Below, piece by piece: positions 1-52,468 of a DNA stretch of 64,000 nucleotides. Source of the stretch: a virus. The stretch spans positions 1 to 64,000 of IMG/VR virus record IMGVR_UViG_3300046737_000227, one strand, 5' to 3'. Both the position numbers and the translations under genes were made by a program. The notes beneath the pieces are model-generated. The model searched no databases. It saw only the letters and a list, made by a program, of their open reading frames with translations, and was not told the origin of the DNA. Within the stretch, counting starts at the first letter, position 1, and every line of letters starts with the position of its first letter.

Positions 1-9
1 GTGCCGATG

Positions 10-219
10 TCAAAGCAATTCGCGGTGCGCCGCGGCCTTGGCAAAGACCTCGATGTGTCCCAGTCGGGATTCAAAGGTCACCTGTATGTCGCCGTCCACA
101 AAATACACCCGGTGACGCCGGGACATGGCGGACCAGACCGGAAACGTATAGCGGGGGTCGGCCACGCCGTTAAAAACCAAGTGGCGGTCAGCGTTGCAAT
201 CAACAGAGTTTATTTTCAT
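10..219 (-). CDS. small hypothetical early protein (69 aa)
   Basis: Complete ORF. ATG at 219 lies 5 nt downstream of a TTGACA-N17-GATATT promoter. Balanced amino-acid composition. Confidence 0.6.
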   Translation of the reverse strand: MKINSVDCNADRHLVFNGVADPRYTFPVWSAMSRRHRVYFVDGDIQVTFESRLGHIEVFAKAAAHRELL

Positions 220-224
220 GGCTC

Positions 225-253
225 AATATCGCGCAGGTCGCGCGCCTTGTCAA
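225..253 (-). promoter_or_regulatory. class A promoter (TTGACA-N17-GATATT, 5 nt, ATG)
   Basis: Minus-sense TTGACA AGGCGCGCGACCTGCGC GATATT GAGCC ATG. The spacer contains a GC dyad around GACCT. Confidence 0.55.
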
Positions 254-362
254 ATTTAAAAAGTTGAGCGGGGTGGGGTTGTGAACCCACTGGCACCCAG
301 TAGCTACCCGGGCGTCCTTACAGAATTTGCTGACCGTCGTCGGCCTCTCCGCTCGTAAAATT

Positions 363-390
363 TGGTGACGGCCCGGGGACTCGAACCCCG
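363..390 (-). other. tRNA-like 3' module: T-arm, 3' acceptor strand, discriminator A and encoded CCA
   Basis: Minus-sense CGGGG TTCGAGT CCCCG GGCCGTC A CCA. I could not fold a D-arm or anticodon arm upstream. Confidence 0.5.
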
Positions 391-593
391 GCGCGTGCAG
401 CAGGCGTATCAAGAGTGTTGACGCTCTCTCCAATCCTGGTCAACCTGCACACGGAAACCAACGCCATCAGCTGAGGCGGGTCACCCTCCACCGGGGGTTC
501 CGCGGGTCGCGTTTGCAACCGCCTGCCGCTTCCACCCCAATAATCGGACTTTCCGATGGCTCTCGCCCGTCCGGGGTGACGCGCCTCAACCGA
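363..593 (-). ncRNA. candidate structured RNA ending in the tRNA-like module
   Basis: No credible ORF. Many nested or long-range complementarities, e.g. GTCACCCC with GGGTGAC, AGGCGG with CCGCCT, GTGCAGG with CCTGCTGCAC. Confidence 0.25.
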
Positions 594-655
594 CAAAAAT
601 CACTGTCGGTGGCGTGCGCTCCCGCACATTGTTTGGGCACCCCCAAACCACCGAC
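594..655 (-). ncRNA. candidate small RNA (three-way-junction fold plus U-run)
   Basis: The predicted TSS of the promoter at 661-689 falls on closing helix GTCGGTGG/CCACCGAC, which encloses hairpins TTTGGG-GGTG-CCCAAA and GTGCG-GGAG-CGCAC. AGTGATTTTTG follows. Confidence 0.35.
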
Positions 656-660
656 ATAGT

Positions 661-689
661 AAAGTGCCACACGTCCATCAAACCGTCAA
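661..689 (-). promoter_or_regulatory. promoter TTGACG-N17-CACTTT (repeat copy A)
   Basis: Minus-sense TTGACG GTTTGATGGACGTGTGG CACTTT. Identical to the element at 833-861. Confidence 0.5.
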
Positions 690-724
690 GCGGGTTTCGC
701 AACGTATTTTTTTCTGTCCAGCGT
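661..724. repeat. dispersed repeat, copy A
   Basis: Shares 48 bp with 833-880 and 40 bp with 1453-1492 (read by eye). Confidence 0.8.
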
Positions 725-736
725 CCTCAACTGACA

Positions 737-825
737 TCGACTGAAGAAGGCGAACCGACCGTCGTCCGCGACCACTGCCGCGGGGGCGAACCCTTTCCTA
801 CGACCGTTTCGCCTGCTTCAATCGA
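737..825 (-). ncRNA. candidate structured small RNA (long closing stem plus two hairpins)
   Basis: An 18-bp closing stem (808-825 with 737-754; one mismatch, one GU) encloses GGG-TTCG-CCC and CCGCG-GCAGTGGT-CGCGG hairpins. It starts 1-2 nt after the predicted TSS of the promoter at 833-861. Confidence 0.35.
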
Positions 826-832
826 CACCCAT

Positions 833-861
833 AAAGTGCCACACGTCCATCAAACCGTCAA
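833..861 (-). promoter_or_regulatory. promoter TTGACG-N17-CACTTT (repeat copy B)
   Basis: Same 29-nt element as 661-689. Overlaps the stop codon of the CDS at 858-1451. Confidence 0.5.
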
Positions 862-880
862 GCGGGTTTCGCAACGTATT
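833..880. repeat. dispersed repeat, copy B
   Basis: 48-bp identity with 661-708. Confidence 0.8.
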
Positions 881-1451
881 GTTTTACGGGATATAACACC
901 AGCTTAAACCGAAACTTAGATATCCGTGGAACCCGAACCAACTCGGCCCCTGCCGGGACATTTCCCCGCCGCCCATATTTTTTGCCCGTGCGTGCGTCGG
1001 CATAGTCGTGCCGCGGAGTTTTGCGCCCCTCATCGGTGCGGCCATCGGCCACCCAGTTCGCAGCGCGATAGATGGTCCCGGCGTGCCCGGCGCTGGGGTC
1101 CGCGTAGGATACAAGGAACTGCACTTCGGGATGGTTGCGGCGAATGTATTTCACGCTGCCGGAAATGGCCCATGTTTCGGCATTGGCGGGCACCTCGTCA
1201 AGCAGGTAAAGTCTGGCTAGCTCCCAAGTTTTTCCCCCATACCGCACATCCGACTGTTTGGGCGGTGCCGAGTATAGCACCATCCCAACCAGCTTACCAA
1301 AAGAAAAAATGCCGAGGGATAGCAGGACAATGGCGGGGCGTTTTTTGAGATAATGGACAGCGACGAATGGAGCGACCGCGCGCAGAGATACCGGCCGCAA
1401 TTCCGAATTTTTACGCCATTCGGAGTCAAAGACAGGTCCAAAGGGTTTCAT
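858..1451 (-). CDS. GNAT-fold protein, possibly Mom-like DNA-modification family (197 aa)
   Basis: The C-terminal part of ORF 858..1970, from MKPFGPVF, is protein-like. The block LVSYADPSAGHAGTIYRAANWVADGRT resembles what I recall of the Mom-type acyltransferase family. The N-terminal 173 aa of the long ORF is Arg/Pro-rich frame noise. Confidence 0.5.
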   Translation of the reverse strand: MKPFGPVFDSEWRKNSELRPVSLRAVAPFVAVHYLKKRPAIVLLSLGIFSFGKLVGMVLYSAPPKQSDVRYGGKTWELARLYLLDEVPANAETWAISGSVKYIRRNHPEVQFLVSYADPSAGHAGTIYRAANWVADGRTDEGRKTPRHDYADARTGKKYGRRGNVPAGAELVRVPRISKFRFKLVLYPVKQYVAKPA

Positions 1452-1452
1452 G

Positions 1453-1492
1453 GTCAAGCGGGTTTCGCAACGTATTTTTTTCTGTCCAGCGT
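1453..1492. repeat. dispersed repeat, copy C
   Basis: 40-bp identity with 685-724. Spans the 3' end of CDS 1454-1819 and abuts the ATG of CDS 858-1451. Confidence 0.8.
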
Positions 1493-1819
1493 GCGGTGGT
1501 TGTCGTCCGCCCGATTCAGCCAGACCGTTTTCACCCGGCAGTCCGGGAGGGACACCGCCAAGACAAGGTCCCAGCCCGGGCGGGAGGGCAGCGCCTGCCT
1601 CACCAGAACCCCGCTGGCGCGTCGGAACCACGTCTCGACGTGGACGATGGTCCAGGCGTCCAGGGCCAGGGAAACGGGCAGCTCGTGCGAGCGCAGCCCG
1701 TCCTGGAAGGCGGCTTCTGCCGCGTGCCGGGTGTAAACCAGCCGGGAAAAATTCACGGCTCGGACTTCTGCCACCAAAGGGGCGGGCAGGTAGATGTCGC
1801 GGTGGAAGTCTAGTCGCAC
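1454..1819 (-). CDS. hypothetical protein (121 aa, GTG start proposed)
   Basis: Protein-like composition from VRLDFHRDIY. GTG at 1819 overlaps the upstream stop. Ends YVAKPA, like the next gene, because of the repeat. Confidence 0.4.
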   Translation of the reverse strand: MRLDFHRDIYLPAPLVAEVRAVNFSRLVYTRHAAEAAFQDGLRSHELPVSLALDAWTIVHVETWFRRASGVLVRQALPSRPGWDLVLAVSLPDCRVKTVWLNRADDNHRTLDRKKYVAKPA

Positions 1820-2040
1820 GGCAGGTCCTTCCACACCCAGAGCGGGTGTCCGCCGTTCTCGTCCGGCAGCGCGATGTTGATGCGCTCCTGGATTTTCGCG
1901 GTAACGTTGTTGCACTCGATTGCCGCCGAACAATATTCGTCGAGGTCGTCGGACTGAAACCGCAATGCACGGCGCGCGGCTTCCTCAGAGGCGTGCTGCG
2001 AGGCGACGACGGTGAAAACGATTCGGAATTGCTTTTTCAT
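1810..2040 (-). CDS. hypothetical protein (76 aa)
   Basis: ORF MKKQFRIVFTVV... in a tight co-oriented array. Confidence 0.6.
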   Translation of the reverse strand: MKKQFRIVFTVVASQHASEEAARRALRFQSDDLDEYCSAAIECNNVTAKIQERINIALPDENGGHPLWVWKDLPCD

Positions 2041-2044
2041 GGGA

Positions 2045-2281
2045 TTACGTTCCGTAAGTGCCCCAGTCCGGCATGGCCGGCGAGATGCTAGCTATCGTGG
2101 CATCAAGCACATGCGCGTCGATGGGCGTGTGCTCGTAGGCGCGCACCACATACGCGTCGGGCTCCTCGCGATAGAATTTTTCCAAGGCCGCCCGCAGGCT
2201 GTCCGCGCTCAGGTCGCGGCGGTTTACCACCACGCCGTCTTTGCGGAATTTCCAAACAATCGAGTAGCTCATGGGAGTCAA
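2045..2281 (-). CDS. hypothetical protein (78 aa)
   Basis: ORF that overlaps the upstream stop by 4 nt. Confidence 0.6.
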   Translation of the reverse strand: MTPMSYSIVWKFRKDGVVVNRRDLSADSLRAALEKFYREEPDAYVVRAYEHTPIDAHVLDATIASISPAMPDWGTYGT

Positions 2282-2472
2282 ATTTTGTTCACTTCCACAC
2301 TGATGCGGCCCACTTGGTGGGGCGCCAGCGAACGACCGGAAGACGATATCAGCAGCGCATACTTGCGCGCGGACACCTTCACGAAGGGGCCGAGGTCGTC
2401 CATGAACGGCATCCCGTCATGGTTGAATTTGAACTTGTCGCCTACGGCGAGGTTTTTGAAGGTCGTTTTCAT
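2278..2472 (-). CDS. hypothetical protein (64 aa)
   Basis: ATG lies 5 nt after the class A promoter hexamer. Confidence 0.7.
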   Translation of the reverse strand: MKTTFKNLAVGDKFKFNHDGMPFMDDLGPFVKVSARKYALLISSSGRSLAPHQVGRISVEVNKI

Positions 2473-2477
2473 GGCAC

Positions 2478-2506
2478 AATGTCGCCCAGGTCGGGCGGGT
2501 TGTCAA
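2478..2506 (-). promoter_or_regulatory. class A promoter
   Basis: TTGACA ACCCGCCCGACCTGGGC GACATT GTGCC ATG. Confidence 0.6.
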
Positions 2507-2507
2507 A

Positions 2508-2810
2508 TTAAAGTTTGTCCACCGCCGCTGAAAGGGGGCGGTCCTCGCCGATGTGAGCAGCAATTTTTGCGATTAGCGCCTGTTCCAGCGTGACATCGTA
2601 GTAAGTGAACCCGGCGGGGGTTGATACGCAAAAGGTTACGATTGCCTTGTTGTTGCCGATACGATTGGCGCCGACGTGCACCGGATTGACCGAAATGTGT
2701 CGATGTTTTTTCATGGGTGTTGGATTCGCAACCGGCCCGGTGGAGCATTCGCAGGAGCGATAAGAACAGCCGCACTGGCGGCAAACGGGGTGGCCTAATG
2801 GATAGCTCAT
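2508..2810 (-). CDS. Cys-rich hypothetical protein (100 aa)
   Basis: ORF with CRQCGCSYRSCEC. TAATTATG junction with the upstream gene. Confidence 0.55.
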   Translation of the reverse strand: MSYPLGHPVCRQCGCSYRSCECSTGPVANPTPMKKHRHISVNPVHVGANRIGNNKAIVTFCVSTPAGFTYYDVTLEQALIAKIAAHIGEDRPLSAAVDKL

Positions 2811-2812
2811 AA

Positions 2813-3070
2813 TTATTCGTCGCGTTGGGGGTTCAAGCGGTTAAACTCCGCGGCCTCGGCCAGGGCGGCCTCGTAGTCCCAGGAGATGGTAACCACGCCC
2901 GTGCTGCCCATTCGCACCAGCGCCCAGCCCGGGCGCTGTTCGATGACCTCGGCCAATGGACTGATGGCGCCCTCGGTCAGCTCGGACAGCAGGAAAAACA
3001 GGTCCCGCGCTTCGTGGGTGAAAGCCTGTTGCTCGCGGCCTCCGGCGATGTGGGTGACGTGAAAGGTCAT
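2813..3070 (-). CDS. hypothetical protein (85 aa)
   Basis: ATG lies 5 nt after the class A hexamer. Confidence 0.7.
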   Translation of the reverse strand: MTFHVTHIAGGREQQAFTHEARDLFFLLSELTEGAISPLAEVIEQRPGWALVRMGSTGVVTISWDYEAALAEAAEFNRLNPQRDE

Positions 3071-3075
3071 AACTG

Positions 3076-3104
3076 AATGTCGCTCAGGTCGGTGCGATTG
3101 TCAA
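3076..3104 (-). promoter_or_regulatory. class A promoter
   Basis: TTGACA ATCGCACCGACCTGAGC GACATT CAGTT ATG. Confidence 0.6.
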
Positions 3105-3331
3105 ACGACGGTCGCAAAATTTTTGTCCTCGCGGAAGTGGCACAAGTAGCTGTCGCTGTTCCAGCTACGGAAGGTGTAAAAACGGCCCTCGAACGACAGC
3201 ACCTTTTTGTGGATTTTTTTCACGTCGTCCCAGCCGTCCGGGATGCGAATTTGCAGCCAGTGGGAGCCGTCCGCCTGCGTGATGGGCGTGACCGGGATGA
3301 ACGCTTCGACTTTGGCAAGGTTCTTGCTCAT
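3101..3331 (-). CDS. hypothetical protein (76 aa)
   Basis: ORF MSKNLAKVEAF..., co-oriented array. Confidence 0.65.
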   Translation of the reverse strand: MSKNLAKVEAFIPVTPITQADGSHWLQIRIPDGWDDVKKIHKKVLSFEGRFYTFRSWNSDSYLCHFREDKNFATVV

Positions 3332-3335
3332 GGGA

Positions 3336-3572
3336 TTAGGCTAAGGTCATGTCGATGGACATCGGGACAAACACGAAGCTATACAGCGCGCGCTTGAACC
3401 AGTTGACGCGCACATCGTAGCGCGCATCAAGGAAGTGGGCCAATTTGTCCCAGGCGGTGAATTCGCCGGCAAACTTGCCATCGACCATCAGGAAGGACGT
3501 TTCGCGGAGGCCGCAAGGCGCGCTCAGGACAATCCGGGGGTGTTTCACGGGGGTTTTGAAGTTCATTCTCAT
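3336..3572 (-). CDS. hypothetical protein (78 aa)
   Basis: ATG lies 5 nt after the class A hexamer. Confidence 0.7.
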   Translation of the reverse strand: MRMNFKTPVKHPRIVLSAPCGLRETSFLMVDGKFAGEFTAWDKLAHFLDARYDVRVNWFKRALYSFVFVPMSIDMTLA

Positions 3573-11065: not shown

Positions 11066-11707
11066 ATGTTGTTGAACAAGAACAAGTTAGACGTGGCGCA
11101 AATCCTGCTTACGTTCGTTGCGCTTTGCGGTGATGTGCAGAAGACTGCCGAAGCGTTAAACCTTGAGCCGAAGGTAGTTCAAGCGCTTGCGGATGCCGAG
11201 GGCTGGGACCTGAAGATTCAGCGCGTTACGCTCCTGGCCAAGTCTGGCAAGCCGGGCGACTTCGAGCGCGCCCAGAATCGCGCCCTCGCTTTTGTCCAGG
11301 GCCACCGCATTAGGTCCTTACTAGACAGCGTGATACGCCGCTTCGAGGGCCTGACGCCGGAAGAGATGTGTGATGCCGTGTCCAGCGTAAGCAAGAACGG
11401 GACCAGAATCCTATCGGCCCGCTATTTTACCGACCTCGCCTCCGCAGCCGAGAAGGCCAGCGCCATGTGCTATTCCGCCCTCGGCGATACCGCCGGCGAG
11501 CGCGTGCAGCGTGATGACGAGCCCGACCAGATGAACGTGAGCGCGTTGCATGCTGCTGTCATTGCGTCACTTAACTCGGCAGGCAGCCACACCAAGCCGG
11601 CGGACCAGATTGTCCGTGAGCTTGCCGAGGCGATTGAGGCGGTCGCGACGACTGAGCGAACCCAAGTCGAGACGCCGCCCGAACCCCCGACCCCAGGAGT
11701 TGGGTGA
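11066..11707 (+). CDS. HTH-like protein (213 aa), regulator or small-terminase candidate
   Basis: The N-terminal segment GDVQKTAEALNLEPKVVQALADAEGW looks like a helix-turn-helix. Acidic C-terminus. Confidence 0.55.
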   Translation: MLLNKNKLDVAQILLTFVALCGDVQKTAEALNLEPKVVQALADAEGWDLKIQRVTLLAKSGKPGDFERAQNRALAFVQGHRIRSLLDSVIRRFEGLTPEEMCDAVSSVSKNGTRILSARYFTDLASAAEKASAMCYSALGDTAGERVQRDDEPDQMNVSALHAAVIASLNSAGSHTKPADQIVRELAEAIEAVATTERTQVETPPEPPTPGVG

Positions 11708-11733
11708 ATACACCCAACGCGAGGCGACCCGAA

Positions 11734-16251: not shown

Positions 16252-16430
16252 TGAAGACACTGAACCTCGACGAATTAATCGAGCGACTCGTGGCGATGCA
16301 AAAGCTCGGCGCCGGAAAACAGGAGGTCATCGTCTGGCACGACGGGTCGGTGGGCTGTGACGGCATTCGTCACGTGGAATCGTCGTTGGTGGGCGTTGAA
16401 GACGCGGCGCCATCTATCATCCTCACATGA
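16248..16430 (+). CDS. hypothetical protein (60 aa)
   Basis: ORF with ATGA overlap. Confidence 0.55.
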   Translation: MMKTLNLDELIERLVAMQKLGAGKQEVIVWHDGSVGCDGIRHVESSLVGVEDAAPSIILT

Positions 16431-17146
16431 GAGTTTTCGCTTACCTCCGGGTGTCCACGCAAGAGCAGGTGGACAAGAACGGGCTCGAGCGCCAGTGGGA
16501 CGCGATACAGTCGCTGCTCGCGTCGAAGCTGGACTGGACCATCGCACGGAAGTTTTCCGAGCACCAGTCCGGCGGCGTGACCTTCGAGAACCGCGGCATG
16601 CTGCTGGAGATGCTCGAGCTCGCGCAGACATACGACGTCGAGGCGATAGTCGTCGAGCGCGCGGACCGCATCGCGCGTGACCTGATGGCGCAGGAAATCT
16701 TTTTCGTGAAGTGCGGTGAACGGAACATCAAGGTGTTCGCCGCGGATACGGGCCAGGAGCTCACGTGCAAAGACGGCGACCCCACGCGCGTGCTGTTGCG
16801 GCAACTGCTCGGCGCGCTCGCGCAGTGGGAAAAAGCTGTCATTGTTAAGAAGCTGCAAGACGGTCGGCGGCGCACCGCGGCAAAGACTGGGATGCCCTGC
16901 GGCGGGCCGAAGGGTTACGGCACCCGCGGAGACGCCTCGGAGCAGGCGGACGAGCGGCGGGTCCTCAACTACATCCGGGAGCGCCGGCGGGGGGCGAACT
17001 GGACTTACAAGGAAATCGCGGACGAATTGAACCGGCGGCGGGAGCGGGCGCCGGGCGGCAAATTTTACTGGCATACCAGCACCGTTATGCACCTTGACAA
17101 AAAGCAAATTCCGGACACTTCTTCGGGGACATGGCGACCACATTAA
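16427..17146 (+). CDS. serine recombinase (resolvase/invertase-type catalytic domain, 239 aa)
   Basis: MRVFAYLRVSTQEQ places the catalytic Ser in the typical YxRVST context. VVERADRIARD follows, then a short C-terminal DNA-binding-like region. Confidence 0.85.
   Translation: MRVFAYLRVSTQEQVDKNGLERQWDAIQSLLASKLDWTIARKFSEHQSGGVTFENRGMLLEMLELAQTYDVEAIVVERADRIARDLMAQEIFFVKCGERNIKVFAADTGQELTCKDGDPTRVLLRQLLGALAQWEKAVIVKKLQDGRRRTAAKTGMPCGGPKGYGTRGDASEQADERRVLNYIRERRRGANWTYKEIADELNRRRERAPGGKFYWHTSTVMHLDKKQIPDTSSGTWRPH
17094..17121 (+). promoter_or_regulatory. class B promoter
   Basis: TTGACA AAAAGCAAATTCCGGA CACTTC TTCGGGGAC ATG(17131). Embedded in the recombinase 3' end. Confidence 0.5.
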
Positions 17147-24797: not shown

Positions 24798-25527
24798 AAT
24801 TCTGCTGGCATTCCTTTTCTGGGAGCGCGACAAGGCGCAGATGTGCCAGCTCGCCCGCCTCATCGCGGACCTCGAGCCGGGCATGTGCGAATCTGCCGAC
24901 GTGCTTTTTTCCGCGCGCTTCGACTGCACGCACGACCTCGAAACGATTCAATATGTCTCTCGAAAATTCAAAGTCCACACGAACATTTGTCGCGGACGGC
25001 GCGGCGTGGGTTGGCCTGCCGGCTGCAACGATATCGTCTTCGGGACCCTCGACTACGTTCACGATTACGGTGCAGCCAAAAGAATCCCTCCTTACAAGGC
25101 TGTGGCGCTCCTGGAAGCGGACGGAGCTCCTCTTCGCAAAGGTTGGATAGAGGAACTCTCGCGCGCGTGGGACGAGGCGAACGCGAAGAAACCGGTGCGC
25201 GTCTTCGGTCCGCTGCTCGACACGGGGGTCAAGGACGCCGGCTTCAAGCACATCAACGGGAACTGCTTGGTGTCCGGGGACAAAGTTTTTCTGCATTGGT
25301 TCACTCGCAAGCTCGGCGGCTGCACCCCTAGGGCGGGATGGGACTGGTGTTTGGCCCCGCAGTTCAAGCGCCTGGGCTGGGCCGACTGCAAGCAAATGAA
25401 GTCGTGGTGGCGCTGCCCGGGCGTGTCCGAGGAGCAATACAACCAGCTGCTCGATGCCGGCGTGTGCTATCTCCACGGCTGCAAAAATGAGGACGTGTGG
25501 AACCTCGTCCGGAAAAAATACCTGTGA
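24778..25527 (+). CDS. hypothetical protein of the sugar-modification cassette (249 aa)
   Basis: Internal ATG (MENPPSKILLAF...) of ORF 24700..25527. Contains GWPAGCNDIVFG. Confidence 0.5.
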   Translation: MENPPSKILLAFLFWERDKAQMCQLARLIADLEPGMCESADVLFSARFDCTHDLETIQYVSRKFKVHTNICRGRRGVGWPAGCNDIVFGTLDYVHDYGAAKRIPPYKAVALLEADGAPLRKGWIEELSRAWDEANAKKPVRVFGPLLDTGVKDAGFKHINGNCLVSGDKVFLHWFTRKLGGCTPRAGWDWCLAPQFKRLGWADCKQMKSWWRCPGVSEEQYNQLLDAGVCYLHGCKNEDVWNLVRKKYL

Positions 25528-26075
25528 GCGATATCCCCGAGACAATGCTTCCGACCGAGTGCTTGTGTTATCCGCGCAGCGGGCACCACGCGCTCACGAA
25601 CGTGCTCGCCCATTACTTCGGCAAAAATTTTCACTACTGCGAGATGTATCGCGAGAATCCCAAGCTGATGGGTCCGGGCTCTCCGACTACGTGGCAGAAG
25701 AACCACGACTTCGAGCTGTTGACCCCGATTATCCCGGAGCGCCGGTATATCGTGCAGGTCCGCAATCCGCTGGAGTCAATCGAATCCTGGCAGATGCTGG
25801 ACCATCGGCTCATCGGTCACCCGAACGAGACGCAGGAGAAGCGATTGGATTTTTGGACCGCGTTCGTGAAAAAGTGGGTGTTTGGTCCCGTGCCGAATCG
25901 GCTGGTGGTCTGGTATGAGGACTTGGTCGAACGGCCCGTGCCGACGGTCACCAGCGTGATTCAATTTGTAACCCGAACCCAGAACGTGGATGCCGTGAAA
26001 CTGCAAGCCGCGCTCGAAAAATTCCCGCTCGCGCGGAGGACTCAAACATGCCCGACGCTATACACCAAGGCGTGA
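25524..26075 (+). CDS. sulfotransferase-like protein (183 aa, GTG start proposed)
   Basis: CYPRSGHH (5'-PSB-like), VRNPLESIES (3'-PB-like) and VVWYEDLVERP...VIQFV (typical C-terminal block). GTGA overlap with the upstream stop. Confidence 0.6.
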   Translation: MSDIPETMLPTECLCYPRSGHHALTNVLAHYFGKNFHYCEMYRENPKLMGPGSPTTWQKNHDFELLTPIIPERRYIVQVRNPLESIESWQMLDHRLIGHPNETQEKRLDFWTAFVKKWVFGPVPNRLVVWYEDLVERPVPTVTSVIQFVTRTQNVDAVKLQAALEKFPLARRTQTCPTLYTKA

Positions 26076-26791
26076 AGACAATCGTGTCCGTTCATGGTTA
26101 TAAGGGAGACGAGCACCAGATTCGCGCGCTCTTGCCGTGCTACGAGCACCACAAACTGCCCATTGTCATCCTTACGCCGACGGACAGCCGCATCCCGGAG
26201 ATGGGTCCGCACATCTGCCGTTTCGGTGGGCTGCGTGAATACGTGGGGGCGAAAAGTCTGGCGCGCCAGCTGGAGCATTGGAAAATCCTGTTGGAATACG
26301 ACGCGACGCACTACCTCTGCAACGATTCGGACAGCTTCTGCGTGTCCGCACAGCTCCCGCAATACATCTACGACGAGGACGTGCTGTGGAGTAACGAGGT
26401 GTCCGACATGTTCCACGTCCGCCCGGCCACCTACACGCTTCCGCGGCTCGCGTTCCAGCCCCCCTACTTTTTCTCGCGTGGAATCCTGGAACGGCTCATT
26501 GCCGCTGCACCGCTCGTCGTGTTTGAACCCCAGACCCCGTTCATCGACTGGTATTTCATGGCGGTCGCGCACGCCGGCGGGATTCCGCACAAAAACTTTC
26601 GAGACGGCATCAGCTGCGGAACCGCTGACTCTAGCATTCACCCAACTGCCAAGGACGGAGGGCTGGGGCTACGGGCCATGACCAACGCGGTTCAGAACCA
26701 CGGAGCAATTTTTCTCCATGCGGTCAAGAGCGCGCAGGTCCGCCGACAGATGGAATTTGTGCGCAAGCTTTACGTCCGGAACCACCCATGA
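26048..26791 (+). CDS. hypothetical protein, possible glycosyltransferase (247 aa)
   Basis: The acidic motif YLCNDSDSF could be DxD-like. Cassette context. Confidence 0.45.
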   Translation: MPDAIHQGVKTIVSVHGYKGDEHQIRALLPCYEHHKLPIVILTPTDSRIPEMGPHICRFGGLREYVGAKSLARQLEHWKILLEYDATHYLCNDSDSFCVSAQLPQYIYDEDVLWSNEVSDMFHVRPATYTLPRLAFQPPYFFSRGILERLIAAAPLVVFEPQTPFIDWYFMAVAHAGGIPHKNFRDGISCGTADSSIHPTAKDGGLGLRAMTNAVQNHGAIFLHAVKSAQVRRQMEFVRKLYVRNHP

Positions 26792-27726
26792 ACAAGAACT
26801 CCAGAATTTACGTCGCGGGTCACCGCGGGCTCGTCGGGGATGCCGTCCTGCGGCACCTGCGCGCGAACGGCTACACCAACATTCTCACCAAGACGCACAC
26901 CGAGCTGGACCTGACGGACCCGGTCGTGGTGCGCTGGTTCTTTTCCTCGCACGAGCCGGAATACGTTTTTCTGTGTGCCGCGCACGTCGGGGGCATCCTG
27001 GCGAACGACCAGAACCGCGTGGAATTCCTGACGAAGAACCTCGCCATCCAGAACAACGTCATCTTGAGCGCCGCCGCGTATGGCGTGAAAAAGCTGTTGT
27101 TCCTGGGGTCGTCCTGCATCTACCCGAAAAACGCCGAGCAGCCCATCAAGCCGAACGCGCTGCTCACCGGTGCTTTTGAACCGACGACCGAGGCATACGG
27201 CATCGCCAAGGTGGCCGGCATCCGCCTGTGCCAATACCTGCGTGACGAGCAAGGCTGTAACTTCATCGCCGCACAGCCGTGCAACCTCTACGGGCCGAAC
27301 GACCGGTTTGACTCCGTTCGGTCGCACGTCGTGCCGGGGCTCATTACTCGCCTGCACCGCGCAAAATCCCTGGGGATGTCCGAGCTGGACGTCTGGGGCG
27401 ACGGGTCCGCGCAGCGGGAACTGCTCTATGCCGACGACCTCGCCAGCGCGTTGCTGCTGCTCATGCACGCATACGACGGGCGCGAGGTGGTGAACGCCGG
27501 CAGCAGCGACGAATGGACCATCAAGGAAATCGCCGACGAAGTCCGCCGGGTGGTCGGTTACCGAGGCGTGCTTTTCTTCGATGACTCGAAACCGACCGGT
27601 GTTTCCCGCAAGGTTTTGGACAATTCTTTCATCAGGAGCCTGGGCTGGACCCCGCAAGTATCTTTCCCCGAAGGACTTGAGAAGACCTACACGGGATTCC
27701 TGCAGCGGACCACATTGGGCTCTTGA
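26788..27726 (+). CDS. fcl: GDP-L-fucose synthase (GDP-4-keto-6-deoxy-D-mannose 3,5-epimerase/4-reductase)
   Basis: Collinear with E. coli Fcl as I recall it: IYVAGHRGLVG, AAHVGGILAN, KLLFLGSSCIYPK, EPTTEAYGIAKVAGI, NLYGPND, and a DDSKPTGVSRKVLD tail. Confidence 0.92.
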   Translation: MNKNSRIYVAGHRGLVGDAVLRHLRANGYTNILTKTHTELDLTDPVVVRWFFSSHEPEYVFLCAAHVGGILANDQNRVEFLTKNLAIQNNVILSAAAYGVKKLLFLGSSCIYPKNAEQPIKPNALLTGAFEPTTEAYGIAKVAGIRLCQYLRDEQGCNFIAAQPCNLYGPNDRFDSVRSHVVPGLITRLHRAKSLGMSELDVWGDGSAQRELLYADDLASALLLLMHAYDGREVVNAGSSDEWTIKEIADEVRRVVGYRGVLFFDDSKPTGVSRKVLDNSFIRSLGWTPQVSFPEGLEKTYTGFLQRTTLGS

Positions 27727-31808: not shown

Positions 31809-32957
31809 ATGTCTTGTGGTTCTTGCGGAAATAATAATTGCGGCGGTTGCAATGAGTGCAACAGCTTTGTCACGGGCTGTGGGGCGTCGGGCACGCCGTG
31901 CGGCTCGTGCCCGCCGAATAGCGCCGATTGCGAAACGCTTCCGAGTGCGCTCCAAAACTTTGTCGATGCCTTCTTCGGTGCTGTCACCAAAACGGAAATC
32001 GACGGGCAAGTAACGTGGATTCTCCCATGTAACCTGGACATCGGGTTGCCGGGTAACCCGCGCGCGGACGGCGAAGGGCTCGCCTGCTATTTTCTTCGGT
32101 TGTTCCGGGACGGAATTAACGGGCTCGAGGGTCCCACTGGCCCGACGGGCGCTGCCGGCGAAAACGGCGCGAACGCCTGGACGATTATCCTCACGGCATT
32201 TGTTCAGCCGGCTGCGGGCGGCACGGTAAATTTCAACATCGTCGCTTCGCCGACCATCACGGTGGGCCAGACGTTTTTCGTCCCCGGCTCCGGGTATTAC
32301 ATCGTCACGAGCCGCATCTCGAATTCGGTTTTTGCTCAGCTCATCGAAGCTGTGCCGTCGCCCAACGCGGTGACGGTCCCCGGCACCATCGCTCTCCCCT
32401 GTGGTCCGCGCGGGCTCACGATTACCGGCCCGACCGGTGCTCCCGGTTTGGCGGGTCCGACGGGTGCCCAAGGTCCCACGGGTCCAACTGGCGCAACGGG
32501 CGCAACGGGTCCGACTGGACCGACGGGCGCGGTCACGACGAACGCGAACGGTCAGGTGACCGTCACGGGTGCGACGGACTTTACGGTCACGAACGCGGAC
32601 CAAAAAATCTCGTTCGGTATCTCGGACCCCGAGGTGACGCTCCCCTCAATCGGGACGTATCTTGTGATGGCTCGATTCCGCTGCTATCAGCAAATCGGCA
32701 GCGGCGACAATCTTGGTTGGGATTTTTACATGAACAACCAGACGACCGCTACCCCCGTCCCGGGAGGCGAGCATCCGGACGTGCTGATTCTAAACACGGG
32801 CGCGCCGACGCATTCTCAGTATTACCACATTTATTCCTTGGTCACGACGACGACCATCAACAACATCATCGACGTGCACGTGCAGTCGGAGAGCGGTTCC
32901 GCGCCGCAGACGATTTATCAGGACGGCTCGACCATCCTGTTCATCCAACTGTCCTAA
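31809..32957 (+). CDS. collagen-like repeat fibre protein with Cys-rich N-terminus (382 aa)
   Basis: N-terminal CGSCGNNNCGGCNECNSFVTGCGASGTPCGSCPP. Gly-X-Y runs [14 protein letters not shown] and [35 protein letters not shown]. Confidence 0.75.
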   Translation: MSCGSCGNNNCGGCNECNSFVTGCGASGTPCGSCPPNSADCETLPSALQNFVDAFFGAVTKTEIDGQVTWILPCNLDIGLPGNPRADGEGLACYFLRLFRDGINGLEGPTGPTGAAGENGANAWTIILTAFVQPAAGGTVNFNIVASPTITVGQTFFVPGSGYYIVTSRISNSVFAQLIEAVPSPNAVTVPGTIALPCGPRGLTITGPTGAPGLAGPTGAQGPTGPTGATGATGPTGPTGAVTTNANGQVTVTGATDFTVTNADQKISFGISDPEVTLPSIGTYLVMARFRCYQQIGSGDNLGWDFYMNNQTTATPVPGGEHPDVLILNTGAPTHSQYYHIYSLVTTTTINNIIDVHVQSESGSAPQTIYQDGSTILFIQLS

Positions 32958-33172
32958 TGAAAGACTGCACACATCCACTTCATCGCGATGACGAGGGAGA
33001 TTTGTCCCGTCCGTGTTTTCCACGTGGCTCGACGAAAATCCTGCCCGGGCGCACGCTGCCCCCGCGCATCATCGTGAACCAGACGGACGACGTGCTCCAG
33101 GACGAGGCCGGTTTTCCGATTCTGGATGAAGTGACCGGTCAGACCATCATCGACGATTTGCGACGACAATGA
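32958..33172 (+). CDS. hypothetical protein (71 aa)
   Basis: ATG immediately after the upstream TAA. Internal to ORF 32717..33172. Confidence 0.4.
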
Positions 33173-34269
33173 AAGTTTCAACCTACGTAGCCGGAGAAGA
33201 GGCGAATCCCGAAGGGTGGCTGTTCATCGCCGAACGCCAGCCGGACGGTTCTTACGAGACAAAGAAAATCGCCCCCGACAAACTCGGTGAAACGGGTCCT
33301 GCGGGTCCGCAAGGACTGCCGGGCTCCCCCGGCGCGACGGGTGCGACCGGTGCGCCAGGACCAACCGGCGCAACCGGAGCCGCCGGCGCAACCGGCCCCC
33401 AGGGCGCGGACAGCTCCGACGAATGGGTGCATCCCGACGGGCTGTCGGTTGACCTTTTTGAGGAGTATCCGGCGGGCGCGATTGTCGCTCCGAATGGCGG
33501 ATTCGGCTGGGACACCGCCGGCGTCGTCTCGGGCGGAACCATCGTCCAGCGCAACGTCGCGAATGGCCGCACAGAAAAGCGACTCAGCTTGACCGCCGGT
33601 GAATTCGCTCGCAAGCTCTACGTTGGCGGTGACTGGCATCGCCTGCGAATTGCGGTCCTGCTGCGCGTTAACGGCGCGTCCACTTTTACCGGGAATGGCT
33701 TTATCGGGCTATGTAGCGGGACGGCCAATCCCTTCGGCGGGACGACGGACAACGCCGTCGGTATTTATTTTGACCCGGTGAATGTGAATTCCTGGGCGTT
33801 CACGAACGGGACGACGGCGGATTTCTTCGCGCAAAGCGTGGGCACGCGGTTCGTCACCAAGCGCGGCGCGAGTGTCACCGACCAAGGCGGTGGAGCGGGC
33901 TCGGACGGGCGTCGGTTCGCCTCGGACGAAGACCACCGCTCACTTTTCCTGCTCGAGTATCGTCGTCCGGTTTTTGCGACCGCGGCCACGTCGGTGAGTT
34001 ACGAAGTTTCGATGCGCTCGACTAACGCGGCCCAAGCCGAATTCTCGCTCAGCAAGCGCGCTCTGTTCGACGCAATTTTAGACAGCGCAAACAACAGCAC
34101 CATCTGTCAGAGTGATACGATGGTAACGCTGACCGGCTCGGGTTCGACCACGGTCGCCAACACTTTCAGTTTCGACGAGAGCACGGGCGCCTTCGACACG
34201 CTCAACCTCCGCTGGGACGGCGCGCACCCGCTGGAAATCTGCGGGCTGGCGGTTCACAAGATTTACTAA
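33169..34269 (+). CDS. collagen-like repeat fibre protein (366 aa)
   Basis: [41 protein letters not shown], then a globular domain paralogous to that of 34272-35582. Confidence 0.75.
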
Positions 34270-34271
34270 AA

Positions 34272-35582
34272 ATGAACGTCTCCCTCGAAGAAATTTTTGA
34301 GCAGTCGCCGGTCACGGTTAACGGTGACGGGCATCTGTTGATTGGCCAGCTCAACGATGGCGGCGTGATTCAGCTGAAGCGAATTCATGTTACCACGTTG
34401 AATCAAGCGGTCGGCCCCACGGGTCCCACGGGTCCCACGGGCGCGAACGGAACGAACGGCACGAACGGCGTGACGGGTCCGACCGGACCCACGGGTCCCA
34501 CGGGTCCCACCGGCCCGGTTGGTCCGACGGGTTCCAACGGTCCCACGGGTCCGACTGGGCCAGCAGGCAGCACGGGTGCAACCGGACCTACTGGTCCGAC
34601 GGGCGCGAGCGGCGCAACCGGCCCAACGGGAGCTGCCGGCGCAACGGGTCCTACGGGTCCCACGGGAGCCGCCGGCGCAACTGGCGCAACGGGTCCGACG
34701 GGTCCCACAGGCCCGACGGGAGCAAACGGCACGAGCGGAGCGGATGGCGCTTCGTTCACGGTCGATTCATTCGCGCTGGATAATTTTGATGGATACGCGA
34801 CTGGCTCCATCTCTACTTTTTCCAGTGGCTCGGGATGGAGTGGCTCGGGTGCCGCATCGGGCGCGACTATCGTCGAAGTTACGATGTCGGACGGTCGTAT
34901 TGATAGGCGCATGTCGCTTGTCGGCCCGGGGGAATTCAAGCGAAAAATGATTTGGGGCGAAAAATGGAAACGCCTTCGCATCGGTCTGTTGCTACGCATC
35001 AACGGCGGGTCGACCATCACGGGCGATTTCGCTTTCGGCGTGTGCTCGGGCATCACTAACGGGGTAGGAAGTGCGGCGTGCACTAACTTCATCGGAGCGA
35101 CGACCCGCGTGGGCAACACGAATCAGTATACTTTTGCTGCCGGCAGTGACGTCGGGGTTTTCACCGCGACCTTTGCCGGCGGCTCGTCCAAGCGTGTGAA
35201 TACCTTCACGGACTACGGCGGGGTGTCCTCGATGAAAGGTTATCCGGCGACGGGGTCTTCGGCGCTTTGCATCAACATGCTGGACATCAAACGGGGCCGA
35301 CTCGCTGCGAGTGCGACCTACAGCATGTTCGTCCAAGGCCCGACCGGGTCTGGCACCGCCGCGGGCAGCGCGGAGCAGTTCCTGGACTGGGGCACGCTGC
35401 TTCAGGCAGTTTCTGAGGTGGACACCACGAGCCCCTCCGGGTGGTGGTATGACGGGGCGGCATCCACGAACTCGGGGACCTTCGACGAATCCGCGGGGGC
35501 GCTGGATTCCATCAATGTCTGGTGGAGCCACGCCTCTACCGCCATCGAAATAGCGGGCATCGCGGTGATGAAAGCCTTTTGA
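34272..35582 (+). CDS. collagen-like repeat fibre protein (436 aa)
   Basis: About 40 Gly-X-Y triplets ([19 protein letters not shown]...), then a C-terminal domain aligning with 33169-34269: [20 protein letters not shown] vs [20 protein letters not shown]. Confidence 0.8.
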
Positions 35583-41265: not shown

Positions 41266-41271
41266 ATAGTG

Positions 41272-41733
41272 ATGCAAGAGCATGCCACAGCGTTAGCCCA
41301 GGTCCTTCCGAGCGGGATTCCCGCTTTGCGGCCCCTGTTCCAGCGTTACTTTGAGGACGTCCGGTATCCCGGGCGGCTGGACATGCGCGCAGTGGAAGAA
41401 ATCTGGGGGCCGCTCATCGCCCGGGGCAACGGCAGCATTTTGGCCGAGTGGCCGACGGCGGGCGCTCGCGGCATCGTGGGGACCACCTACATGCGCGACA
41501 CGTTCAACGGCGAGCTGACCGCCATGATGGTTTTTCTCTACGTCATGCCGGAGTGTCGGGGCCAGGGCATCGGGCGCACCTTGCTGGACCAAGCTGAGAC
41601 AGACGCCCGGCTGCGTGGCTGCACGAGCATTGTCCACGGGCACACGTTCACCATCAACGAGGATGGCGGACGAGCAATTTTTGAGAAGCGCGGTTACGAA
41701 GTAATCGAGCTCGGTTTTCGGAAACGACTTTAA
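41272..41733 (+). CDS. GNAT-family N-acetyltransferase (153 aa)
   Basis: MPECRGQGIGRTLLDQAE is the acetyl-CoA-binding motif A (R/Q-x-x-G-x-G/A). Confidence 0.75.
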   Translation: MQEHATALAQVLPSGIPALRPLFQRYFEDVRYPGRLDMRAVEEIWGPLIARGNGSILAEWPTAGARGIVGTTYMRDTFNGELTAMMVFLYVMPECRGQGIGRTLLDQAETDARLRGCTSIVHGHTFTINEDGGRAIFEKRGYEVIELGFRKRL

Positions 41734-44745: not shown

Positions 44746-47700
44746 ATGCCGAGCGTCATTGAGGATTTAGGGGCAGGGGAATCTTTCACGGACACGCCCG
44801 TCCCGGTTGTGCCAGCTGAGGTGCCCGTCTACGGCGGCACGGCTCGGGGACTGAAATCCTCGAAGCCCATCACGCCGGAAGTTCAGGCGCAGCTCGACCA
44901 GTCCAGCAAAGGGATGCGGGCCGCACTCGCGGAAAAGGGAATCGAAGCCCCGCCGATGCTGCCCGAGGAGGCCGCGAAAGCCGCCGCTGAAAAAGAAAAG
45001 GAAGATAAAGCGTTCGCCGGACTGCAGGAGGTGGACCCTTTTAGCGTGTTGCAAGAAGTCGACCCCCGCTCTGTTGGGGAGGAGCCCGAATTCCGCGGCG
45101 TCCCGTTGGCCGACCGACTCGATACTGAGAAGCCCGATGTTCTCGCCAAGGACCCGAAGTTCAATGTGCTCGAGCACATCGCGACGAACCGCGACAATAT
45201 TTTTCAGGACCCCAATCGCTACAAAAAAGCGCTCGACACTTATCGCGCGCAAAAAGTCGTGGGCACCACGGCGAACAAGGTCTGGGAATCCGCCAAGAAA
45301 GAAACGGGTCCCCTGCTTTTGGAAATTCTCAAATCTTTGCCGAAGCGGCTCGAGAATGTTTCTGATATCGCCATTGGTCCGGTGATTAACGACATCACGG
45401 CAAAGTTTCGTCACGAGAGTGCCGACCCCGCGCTTCGCGCGCAGTGGGATAAAATGACAGACGACAACCGCGAGGCCGCCATCGCCGAGGCCATCGGCGG
45501 AACGCAGCTCGCCGTGGGCTCGCTTCAGGACATGGTGCGCCAGGGCGCGCGCAAGCTGACGGGTCCCGGATTCAATTTGAAACAGCTCAAGGTGACCCCT
45601 TCGGGTGTCTCGATGGAGCGCAAAGACTGGAGCAAAATTTCTGATGAAGAAGTCAAAAGCGAGTTATTCAAAGACCTCGGCTGGCACGACACCGTCCAAG
45701 GTATCTCGTCCGGCCAAACCGTCAAAGACCTCGTCAGCGAAGGCGTCCAGCTCAACCCGGAAAACATCAAGCTACTGAGCTTGACGGACCCGGTCACGCT
45801 CGTCGCCACTGCCGGCGGACTCAAGGCCGTGGGCGTCGGTGGCAAAGTTCTTTTTACCGCGGCCAACGAAGTTGGCGCGGGCAAAGCGCTGAACTACCTC
45901 GGACAGCTTTCCCAAACCGCCGCGGCGAAAACCACGCAGCTCGTCGGCACGGGCATCGAAAAAACCGGTAAGGTCATCGCCTCTGCGCTTCCCATCTCGG
46001 GCCAGGGCATTAGCGTCGGCGCCGGACTGAGTCTTTTAGGCGTCCCACACAAGGCCATCCTGGCGGCGCGTATCGCGGCCCCCGTTTTACAGAAGACGGG
46101 ACAGGTCGTTCGGGAAATCGGCGAAGCCGCCGGGGCCGCCCCTAAAGGGCAGCTGTCCCTGGGTCTGGAAACCACGACGGGCGCCAAGCTCGTCAACGCG
46201 GCGAAGACCGTTTCAAAATTTGTTCAACCGCCCGTGGCCGGCGCCGTCAAGGGCGCCGTGGGAACTGCGCCGCTGGCACTCGCGACCGACGAACCGCAAG
46301 GCGGGCTGCTCGGCGTGGGTGCCGTCGGCGGGGCCGTGCACTCTGCCCTCGGAGCCGTCAAAGGCGCGGTCGCCGAAGCCGGCGCGAAAAAATATTTCGA
46401 CCCGGGCCAAATCAACTGGGAAGCGACCCCGTCTCCTGGCTACGATAACTTCACCGAGCTGAACAAAGTTCACGAGCAGGTCGCCGCGTCCACGCCGTCT
46501 AACGCGCGGAACATGGTGGATAGCTTGCGCGAAACGCTGCGCCCGTTCGGCAAGAAACTTTTCCTCGTCGACGACGCGGCTTTTTCCAAGGCCATCGCTG
46601 ACGATACGGTCCGTGCGAACGGTGGCAAATCGCTCACGCCGGAACAACAGGCGGCGGTCACCCAGGAATCCAAAGCGCGCGGCGTTTCAAAAATCTGGAT
46701 GGCAGATGACGCGGGCAAGGGCGAGATGGTTACGCTCGTCAAAGGCTCCGCGAACGCTCCACACGAGTTTGCCCACGTCCTGGAATCCGTAATGGAGCCC
46801 GCGGGACGCGAAGCACTGCACGACGCGGTCCGCAAGGCATACACGCCCGGAGAACTGGAAGCCTTGCGGCAGCATTACGAAAAATCTTTGGGCAGCCGTT
46901 TTGCCGCGGACGTGCCGGGCGTGATGCAAGAAGTCCGCAGCGAATTCATCGCCGACAATTGGGCGAACCTGCTTTACAACACGTCGCTCGAGTCACTCGG
47001 GCTGCCGAAACCGAAATCCTCGTTCCGCGCAAAAATGCTGGACGCGGCGTTGACCTTGGGTGACGCGCTGGGTATCGACATGACGGCAGGCCGCGGCACC
47101 CCGGGGTTGAACCTGAAGCCGAGCTATAGCCTGCGCAAGGCGCTCGAGAACGCGAGCGGTGAAATTTTAGCGGAGCGTGACCAGCGCGCCGCGCAGCAAG
47201 CGACTGCTCCCGAGGTGAAGCCGGTGGCTGAAGCGCCGGCGGCTCCGGTCGAAGTTCCCGTCGAATCCGTGCAGCCGGAGCTGGATTTTACCACGCCCCC
47301 GCCCAAAGAAATTCCCGCTCAAGGCGAGCTCAATTTTGAGACGCCGTCGGCACAACCGAAAGTGGCCCCGGCAGCGACCCCTCCCGCGCCGGCACCCACC
47401 GAAGTCCCGCCGACGGTGTCTCCCTCCCGTGGGGTTTCCACCCCCGAGGCCACCGCCGCCCGTGCCGAGGTCACCAATACCGGGGTCGGTGCGGCCTGGG
47501 CCAAAGGCAAGGACAACGAGCAAGCGGTGACGGAAGTGAACAAGGCACTCGATGAAAGCGTCGGGCTGACCGTCGAACACGCCGGCGCTCCCAAAGCGTC
47601 TTTTAAGCCGACGGAGCCCGAACGCGCCGCCGAGGTGGAAGAAGGCCGCGGGTTGCCGCCAGAACAGCGCGAGCTGCATGCCGGGAAAAAATATCCCACG

Positions 47701-51835: not shown

Positions 51836-52468
51836 ATGCCCGTGATGCCCGAAGACATTCAGCCCGTTGCCGCCGCCCCCGCTGCGGCTGACGAGGTCAC
51901 CCCCGCCGAGGAACCCGAAGCCAAGGCCCCCGTTATGCCGCCCGAGCTGGCGAAGATTCCCGCCCTCGCCGCCCTGGCGAACGGGTCCCCGCCGGCTACC
52001 TACGGGCCGCTCAAGTCGGAAGACCCTCAGCTCAAGGTCATTGGGAAGAAAGAGAACGCCGAGGCCCTGAAAAAGATGGGTTTCGCCGCGTTTGAATCCG
52101 AATCCCAGCCGGGGAACTTCGTGCTTTTTAACGGGCTACTTGTTAAGCCCCAGGAAGTTATGGACGCCGACAAGGCGGGCCAGCTCGATTCCATCGCCGT
52201 GCCCTTTCAGCAGCTGGCGGCCTCATTTGAATCCGCCCGGTTGGATGGCGGCAGTTCCGAAGTTCCCGCAGAGGGGGCGCCCGCTGCGCCAGCGCCCGCT
52301 GGTGAAGCCGCAGCCGCTCCGATGCCCTCCGCTCCCCCCGCTCCTGCCGGTGCCCAGAAACGCCTCCTGGCGGCTCGGGTGACGAATTTGCAGCCCGGCA
52401 GTCCGACATCGGGTCCGGCGCCCGGTCGCGGTCGCGTGCTCAACGCGATTTCAAAACCAGTCGTATGA
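51836..52468 (+). CDS. hypothetical Ala/Pro-rich protein (210 aa), last rightward gene
   Basis: ORF. Its 3' end overlaps the convergent gene by 18 nt. Confidence 0.55.
   Translation: MPVMPEDIQPVAAAPAAADEVTPAEEPEAKAPVMPPELAKIPALAALANGSPPATYGPLKSEDPQLKVIGKKENAEALKKMGFAAFESESQPGNFVLFNGLLVKPQEVMDADKAGQLDSIAVPFQQLAASFESARLDGGSSEVPAEGAPAAPAPAGEAAAAPMPSAPPAPAGAQKRLLAARVTNLQPGSPTSGPAPGRGRVLNAISKPVV

Follow-up and report, generated by a model that had tools for sequence, protein, structure and literature searches.

A candidate tRNA-scaffolded small RNA lacking a D stem and an anticodon arm in a hypervariable island of a phage-like genome

Mimicry of transfer RNA (tRNA) is a recurring viral strategy, and few phage cases are described beyond real tRNAs, transfer-messenger RNA (tmRNA) and Y RNAs. 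The oldest are RNAC and RNAD (species 1 and 2) of phage T4, small stable RNAs from a tRNA-type cluster (PMC3014915), whose roles are still unknown. The tRNA-like domain of tmRNA (SsrA) sets an acceptor stem on a T-arm and lacks a D stem; it has a GG linker, an ACCA end and a long helix in the place of the anticodon arm. The non-coding Y RNA YrlA, which occurs in phages, carries a tRNA-like module, which is cut by RNase P and receives a CCA in vivo in M. smegmatis (PMC4201824), and in mascRNA (MALAT1/MEN-beta), where a tRNA-like module abuts an upstream structured RNA, an RNase P cut makes the 3' end of the upstream RNA and releases a small CCA-ended RNA. The same enzymes are put to use by engineered tRNA scaffolds, in which a cargo replaces the anticodon arm and is processed and protected against nucleases by virtue of the shell (PMC3753655). 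Additionally, allo-tRNAs and tRNA-Sec-like tRNAs, which show an unusual 8/4 or 9/3 partition of the 12-13 base pairs (bp) of the acceptor and T stems, have been found in soil metagenomes and phages, and some are proposed to be regulatory RNAs (PMC5389517). Here, a 64,000-nucleotide (nt) stretch of viral DNA is analysed (positions 1 to 64,000 of IMG/VR record IMGVR_UViG_3300046737_000227; hereafter the window), which represents a novel phage-like genome of ~60% G+C. The tRNA-like sequence at 390-363 on its minus strand is probably where a complete non-coding phage RNA of 106 nt ends on its 3' side; this RNA occupies 468-363 on the same strand and is termed unit D in this report; its neighbours are termed units B, C and E likewise. 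In its way of working, unit D would by analogy come closest to the tRNA-like domain of tmRNA or to the tRNA module in Y RNAs and mascRNA, although it lacks features that define tRNA, tmRNA, YrlA and attP cores.

The minus strand at 390-363 reads CGGGG (390-386), TTCGAGT (385-379), CCCCG (378-374), GGCCGTC (373-367), A (366) and CCA (365-363). A preliminary description of this DNA had interpreted these letters as a T-arm, a 3' acceptor strand, a discriminator base and CCA, and they match that interpretation exactly. The motif, defined as a 5-bp stem with a TTCRANN loop followed by 7 nt, any nucleotide and CCA, is expected 0.05 times per 64 kb on average and occurs at least once in 5 of 100 first-order Markov simulations; its presence is thus unlikely to be due to chance. 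In a looser scan of the whole window, no site other than 390-363 has a canonical T-loop together with a closing strand and ACCA. The motif had been described as an orphan whose acceptor strand has no partner upstream, but the minimum-energy fold reveals that GCCGUC (372-367) pairs with the upstream strand GAUGGC (468-463), which closes unit D.

This 5' acceptor strand (463-468, minus strand, as are all features of unit D) forms 6 bp with 372-367, and all six pairs are kept in all four distinct copies of unit D, namely those of the window and of the related contigs L001, L051 and L150. Across the copies, the second pair is A-U, U-A or C-G, and the third is U-G (in the window), U-A or C-G. As read from the sequences, a U stands at position -1 in every copy (U469 in the window). 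A different partner far upstream, GUCGGUU at the start of unit C, was considered and rejected: it fits L051, but in the window one of its pairs would be a U-U mismatch and L150 lacks it, and the proximal strand is preferred because it fits all four copies. The acceptor strand is followed by a stemless 10-nt linker (GUUGGUUUCC, 453-462), in which alignments A1 and A2 show G10 and G11 to be invariant. By analogy with G18 and G19 of tRNA, this GG may replace the D-loop and contact the T-loop.

The linker leads into helix H2, in which the 5' strand GUGUGCAG (445-452) forms 8 bp with CUGCACGC (400-393) in the fold. The single strand GUUGAC (439-444) then precedes helix H3 (CAGG 438-435 with CCUG 404-401; 4 bp, spanning 401-438), which encloses helix H4 (AGAG 427-424 with CUCU 415-412; 4 bp) and its 8-nt loop CGUCAACA (423-416). 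GUUGAC is invariant and complementary to GUCAAC (422-417) in the H4 loop, and the two hexamers could form a pseudoknot. The linker being stemless and the 8-nt terminal loop being carried by a composite arm of ~16 bp rather than by an anticodon arm of a 5-bp stem and a 7-nt loop with U33, the earlier statement that no D or anticodon arm folds upstream of the motif holds. The T-arm (373-391) consists of a 6-bp stem, CCGGGG/CCCCGG, and the 7-nt loop UUCGAGU; it is followed by the 3' acceptor strand GCCGUC (372-367), the discriminator A366 and the CCA at 365-363 (together 363-372), after which an AU-rich trailer, AAUUUUAC (355-362), separates units D and E. G7 of unit D has no partner, and the sixth, outermost pair of the T stem covaries (C-G vs U-A), which indicates that the acceptor and T stems are split 6+6 and that the 12-bp stack of the 7+5 arrangement in tRNA is preserved. 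Unit D therefore keeps the top half of a tRNA (12-bp stack, UUCGAGU loop, GG linker and A-CCA, with a 6/6 rather than a 7/5 split) and is without a D stem and an anticodon arm.

Comparison of the four copies supports this fold. Standard pairs fill 97.8% of the pair cells, and 15 of the 34 pairs are changed on both sides; when the 3' partners are slid by 1-3 columns as a control, 39-45% of the cells are paired and 1-3 pairs are doubly changed, and none of 500 shuffles reaches the observed values. Compensatory change is present in every helix except the candidate pseudoknot. In addition to the acceptor, six of the eight H2 pairs are changed on both sides, H3 contains A-U in the window vs G-C in the remaining copies, three of the four H4 pairs are changed on both sides (AGAG/CUCU, GGCG/CGCC, GACG/CGUC), and the same is true of three of the six T-stem pairs, the sixth included. 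The alignment is ~79% identical overall, with GUUGAC and GUCAAC invariant. At the 3' end, CCA is encoded in three of the four copies, and L150 reads ACCC and then AAUUUU, so that all four ends fit A/U-CC(A/C); an AU-rich stretch follows in each case (AAUUUU, AUUUUU, AUUUGA and AAUUUU).

The copies are rare, and all four come from uncultured viral or metagenome contigs. The L001 copy was reached through viral contigs that share the neighbouring Mom-like gene. Gapped unit-D patterns return 43 and 75 stretches from IMG/VR, of which only the L001/L019 and L045/L051 contigs are genuine, and a pattern scan of metagenomes returns 23 stretches, of which one is genuine (L150, JGI contig Ga0247793). The covariance model R1, seeded with three copies, scores the window unit at 118.7 bits and recovers L150, which lies outside the seed, at 78 bits (E ~3e-15); over 36 loci it reveals no copies beyond those known. 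A specific unit-D pattern has no match in 185,579 species genomes, which accordingly yield no prophage or host copy. A route through gene X (1454-1819, minus strand), which encodes a 121-residue protein and whose end marks the island that holds unit D, covered 11 protein clusters and added contigs without a new unit-D variant; the gene-X contigs related to the window include farmland soil. In the window and L051, unit D stands in the gene-X slot, and in L001 and L150 it stands in another, after a secreted-protein gene; the second slot in the window (55454-55041) contains protein genes only and no RNA array. Since it is present at two different slots, unit D behaves as a mobile cassette. From these searches, which do not include a comparison with the IMG/VR structured-RNA catalogue, unit D appears to be a new and rare tRNA-mimic family.

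Standard finders do not recognise it. With ARAGORN at default settings, permuted tmRNA included, the window yields neither a tRNA nor a tmRNA gene, and none of 4227 Rfam families, tmRNA included, matches at gathering thresholds; no match to the Rfam tRNA model is obtained even at E up to 10. The ARAGORN and tmRNA searches, permuted forms included, which were among those proposed in the preliminary description, thus return nothing at default settings, and a complete canonical tRNA, which would have told against its reading, is reported by neither program. A permissive Rfam search of 1-1500 yields chance-level matches only, among them a 17-nt T-arm match to mascRNA (17 bits, gathering threshold 42.5), and relaxed ARAGORN gives low-score, inconsistent calls, with permuted tmRNAs on the opposite strand only.

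A comparison with the closest systems reveals likenesses and differences in each case. Unit D shares with the tmRNA domain the acceptor on a T-arm, the missing D stem, the GG linker, the ACCA end, the long helix at the anticodon-arm place and a possible pseudoknot; in contrast to tmRNA, its 106 nt are fully accounted for by helices, with no mRNA-like domain or tag reading frame, its third acceptor pair is never G-U and thus supplies no G3:U70, its split is 6/6 instead of 7/5, and neither ARAGORN nor any Rfam model detects it. With YrlA it has in common that it is non-coding, contains a tRNA-like module and occurs in phages. The ends of YrlA, however, form the Ro-binding stem and its "acceptor" is a closed stem-loop, whereas the ends of unit D form the acceptor stem itself; by reading, unit D has no GNCGAA motif, and no Ro60 gene or TROVE domain is present among the ~50 window open reading frames (ORFs) scanned. 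Units C and D resemble mascRNA and its upstream RNA in abutting each other, but mascRNA is eukaryotic and nuclear, and its Rfam match is confined to the 17-nt T-arm, without homology. T4 RNAC and RNAD, which were compared by description, accompany real tRNA genes, whereas the window has none. The allo-tRNAs share the unusual partition of the acceptor/T stack with unit D but keep their D and anticodon arms and can decode, whereas unit D is split 6/6 and has no anticodon loop. Finally, the engineered scaffold was designed in the laboratory and retains its D arm, and unit D would be its natural analogue without a D stem.

A U at -1 is favoured by bacterial RNase P, which also binds to the RCCA end, and endonucleases typically act on AU-rich trailers. 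The minimal features of an RNase P substrate are present in unit D: an acceptor/T minihelix of ~12 bp, a T-loop, RCCA and, in all four copies, U(-1). The U(-1), the A/U-CC(A/C) end and the AU-rich trailer favour an RNase P cut at the first acceptor base and subsequent 3' trimming or CCA repair, and by analogy with these systems, processing by tRNA-maturation enzymes is plausible. Most likely, as far as the sequence can tell, unit D is a tRNA-scaffolded small RNA that is cut out by tRNA-processing enzymes. Host polymerase would transcribe it early, within an operon of B, C, D and E, and RNase P would cut before G468 and thereby also generate the 3' terminus of unit C. The AU-rich trailer would be cleaved and trimmed to CCA, or the CCA would be repaired by a CCA-adding enzyme. 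The tRNA-like module would thereby act as a built-in processing and stabilising scaffold, and the stable tRNA-shaped product would present the knotted arm (H2-H4) as its functional part.

Several observations weigh against this interpretation. The covariation comes from only four distinct sequences in an alignment fitted to the model and is suggestive rather than decisive, and the six possible pairs of the pseudoknot are invariant in the four copies, so that covariation neither supports nor refutes this pairing. The T-loop of L001 (UUCGUUU) is without A58, and in L150 the encoded end is CCC rather than CCA. In the window, C and D adjoin with a 2-nt overlap, and cleavage between them is not certain. 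The -10 element CACTTT of the putative promoter is weak, and a consensus scan gave no call. Additionally, no partner protein or target for unit D turned up among the scanned ORFs.

The main rival to the reading of unit D as an excised scaffold is that C and D stay together as one RNA of ~230 nt (or B, C and D as one of ~290 nt), in which the tRNA-like tail would protect the 3' end or recruit CCA-binding factors. No spacer separates the two units in the window, where 2 nt are common to both structures, and C adjoins D also in L051 and L169-171. However, D occurs without C in L001 and L150, and C without D in L130 and L138; moreover, an AUUUUU spacer lies between them in L051, and the U at -1 before D is kept in all copies, and we consider a permanently attached tail unlikely. 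Among the explanations offered in the preliminary description, that of a tRNA-like tail on a structured RNA at 363-593 comes closest: the neighbours would indeed be co-transcribed, but C and D are separable modules. It is also conceivable that unit D is the relic of a decaying phage tRNA gene, without a function of its own. The tRNA finders reject it, the island is hypervariable, most relatives are without unit D, and neighbouring units resemble degenerate tRNAs: unit R3 of L001, which has a 36-nt insert at the anticodon, scores 43 bits and so passes the Rfam tRNA model, and the 3' part of unit F in relatives shows a weak, sub-threshold likeness to tRNA-Sec (31 bits), with a tetraloop replacing the anticodon loop. 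A relic is nevertheless improbable in view of the compensatory changes that keep every helix across four lineages, the invariance of GUUGAC/GUCAAC against the overall identity of the alignment, and the retention of unit D at two genomic sites.

The remaining rivals concern the DNA or a different gene order. Integrases that target tRNA genes usually duplicate the T-arm, the acceptor and the encoded CCA, which are the parts found at 390-363, and a serine recombinase is encoded at 16427-17146; the site could thus be the core of a phage attachment site (attP) made by copying a host tRNA gene at its 3' end, as had been suggested. Yet the exact 28-mer at 390-363 has no match in the 185,579 species-representative genomes or in IMG/VR, although the true host is perhaps unsampled, and the identity with a host tRNA 3' end for which a genome search had been proposed is not found; nor, as noted above, does the unit-D pattern occur in these genomes. 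No tyrosine integrase is present among the scanned ORFs, and the sole recombinase is small, of the resolvase type and 16 kb away. An attP copy would not need the 5' acceptor strand that unit D possesses and that covaries, and relatives carry tandem, different CCA-ending units, all of which makes an attP core very improbable. A circularly permuted tRNA or two-piece tmRNA gene, the former likewise suggested before, would have its 5' acceptor strand downstream. The heptamer GACGGTC lies exactly where it had been reported, at 332-338 (338-332 on the minus strand), 24 nt past the CCA, and can make seven pairs with GGCCGUC; additionally, two-piece tmRNA genes have this "CCA end first" order. In the fold of 356-255, however, GACGGTC is the loop end and 3' strand of the first hairpin of unit E (GGCCG 345-341, ACGA, CGGUC 336-332). 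A partner that matches seven of seven positions, G-U allowed, arises within 60 nt with a chance of ~10% at this base composition, and the downstream strand is confined to the window, since the best matches in three homologues reach six, five and five of seven positions. The complementarity is a weak observation and, since the homologues lack it, a coincidence. With the negative ARAGORN and Rfam tmRNA results at normal thresholds, relaxed calls on the opposite strand only, no G3:U70 pair and no tag reading frame, a permuted gene is hardly credible. The same degree of doubt applies to an element that acts as DNA, for instance an operator or an origin with the inverted repeat GTTGAC...GTCAAC as its basis. 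The hexamers are invariant and GGTTGACC resembles a -35 box, but the spacing between the hexamers varies (16, 16, 16 and 19 bp), the five other helices covary as RNA helices do, and the T-loop and CCA would be meaningless at the DNA level.

The unit D operon lies inside a hypervariable early-gene island. The slot in the window contains, in order, a Mom-like gene, a long hairpin (837-726) and units B, C, D and E, which sit downstream of the third copy of a junction repeat. This repeat comprises the 3' end of gene X and a putative promoter (copy 3 at 660-713, copy 2 at 832-885, copy 1 at 1428-1481) and encodes ...KYVAKPA*, with TTGAC overlapping the stop codon. The three copies had initially been taken for a "promoter-like" repeat; they are actually the 3' end of gene X, the stop codon of which overlaps the -35-like TTGACG. 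Over 54 nt, copy 2 shares 98% identity with copy 3. Since the end of the Mom-like ORF (1439-858) lies within copy 2, its C-terminus KQYVAKPA* comes from the repeat. The arrangement suggests that cassettes are inserted by recombination at the gene X junction. The hairpin at 726-837 (minus strand; ~110 nt, nearly perfect, -54 kcal/mol, z = -4.1) stands behind junction copy 2; Rfam gives only chance-level matches to microRNA precursors for it, and no homologue is present among the collected related loci.

A putative extended -10 promoter for the RNA operon is recognisable at 661-689 (minus strand), with TTGACG at 689-684, a 17-nt spacer, TGg at 669-667 and CACTTT at 666-661. The same layout stands upstream of the arrays in L001 (TTGACA...TGgTAAAAT) and L150 (TTGACG...TGaTAGATT), and the operon may well be driven from this site. 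At the predicted transcript start lies unit B (605-655, minus strand), a Y-shaped RNA (-31.2 kcal/mol, z = -4.3) that is followed by AGUGAUUUUU and for which blastn finds no homologue among the collected related loci. Unit C (467-594, minus strand), a structured RNA directly upstream of D, was defined with homologues in L051, L130 and L138. Its closing helix comprises ~19 bp, and in the RNAalifold prediction, which has 34 pairs, pairing is retained at 14 despite a change of both partners; no Rfam family matches unit C. The copies lie at 467-594 (window, minus strand), 11610-11727 (L051), 671-787 (L130) and 2897-3017 (L138); the base of the closing helix (UCGGUUGAGG/CCUCAACUGA) is invariant, and a GGUUGCAAAC loop is common to three of the four. 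Unit E (266-354, minus strand; -40.7 kcal/mol, z = -2.9) is a cloverleaf-like RNA closed by the acceptor-like pairing GAGCGG/CCGCUC. On its 3' side, A265 and a U-run at 262-258 that resembles a terminator follow, without CCA. ARAGORN reports it at relaxed thresholds only, as an undetermined tRNA with a 4-nt anticodon, and blastn finds no homologue among the collected related loci.

The content of the slot differs among relatives. In those without an insert (L139-L143), the junction directly drives an SNF2-type helicase gene, and in others the slot contains small protein genes (L172-L175) or varied combinations of structured RNAs. Neighbouring units in relatives also end with a T-arm, an acceptor strand, any nucleotide, CCA and AUUUU, as in R1 of L001 and in units F and G of L130, L132 and L138. 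R1 is ~186 nt long with a 7/5 stack and ACCA (the L001 units lie at 2939-3126 and 3244-3342), the stack of unit F is 8/4-like and bulged, and the unit contains a GGCGAAGG motif that resembles the Ro-binding GNCGAA of Y RNAs, and unit G, downstream of gene X in the same three loci, ends in C-CCA. In L150, the end of a GDP-mannose dehydratase-like gene lies upstream of the RNA array.

Gene X itself is rare, being found at 16 viral loci and as 11 clusters among 5.8 billion proteins. It matches PHROG 24108, a family of unknown function, and gives no match to Pfam or to PDB sequences. Its AlphaFold model is confident, with a predicted local distance difference test (pLDDT) score of 82; the best PDB fold match, RelE, is not significant (E = 0.5, template modelling score 0.35-0.44), and the structural matches in BFVD are uncharacterised phage proteins only. 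A possible assignment as a RelE- or DUF4258-type RNase was dropped in view of these results. The window proteins include, in addition to the Mom-like protein, collagen-like fibres (31809-35582), a DNA polymerase fragment, a sigma-70-family factor, sugar-modifying enzymes, an HNH-AP2 endonuclease and the resolvase-type recombinase. SmpB, Ro60, RtcB, a CCA-adding enzyme and a ligase are not found among the scanned ORFs. No deposited phage is matched by window 1-3000 in blastn or by the 781-residue replication protein in tblastn, and the Mom-like protein is not on record in an exact-protein look-up.

Several of the other genes show recognisable features. The sigma-70-family factor (58627-59493, minus strand) contains regions 2 and 4, and the later genes of the phage may use a promoter specificity of their own through it. 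The serine recombinase (16427-17146, plus strand) has 239 residues, is of the resolvase/invertase type and carries a C-terminal helix-turn-helix; it is too small for a large serine integrase and might act in dimer resolution or segment inversion. The ORF at 44746-51660 (plus strand) encodes 2304 residues, for which the only hits are DUF7178 and, weakly, gp82 of phage L5, and its product is probably a giant virion or injected protein. At 53542-54117 (minus strand), an HNH endonuclease is fused to an AP2 DNA-binding domain and is likely a homing endonuclease; an HNH gene also lies within the gene-X island of L175-L178. A sugar and modification cluster (25497-27726, 41269-41733 and 52451-53545) comprises an NAD-dependent epimerase/dehydratase, a weak sulfotransferase-like match, a GNAT acetyltransferase and a GT4 glycosyltransferase.

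The unit D locus offers a compact natural tRNA scaffold, with its 6/6 split, its lack of an anticodon and its invariant pair of hexamers. If unit D is processed as proposed, the phage would use host tRNA maturation to punctuate a polycistronic precursor of small RNAs, and unit D would be a defined substrate with which to ask what such mimics bind. A practical warning also follows, as standard tRNA finders miss such RNAs and an attP core or a split tRNA gene may wrongly be read into their 3' ends. A more speculative idea, to which we give only a small chance, is that unit D and its neighbours form a new class of anticodon-less tRNA mimics deployed against the host as a decoy or sponge for readers of the acceptor, T-arm and CCA; no report of phage tRNA-like decoys was found in the literature. 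If this were true, the mimics would be matured like tRNA and perhaps charged, the knotted arm would give specificity, and phages would exchange the cassettes as anti-defence "RNA morons". Candidate targets would be tRNA-targeting immune nucleases, toxins that modify CCA ends, and ribosome-rescue or stringent-response factors. Should unit D be charged, or serve as a decoy for tRNA-recognising host factors, its interest would rise sharply.

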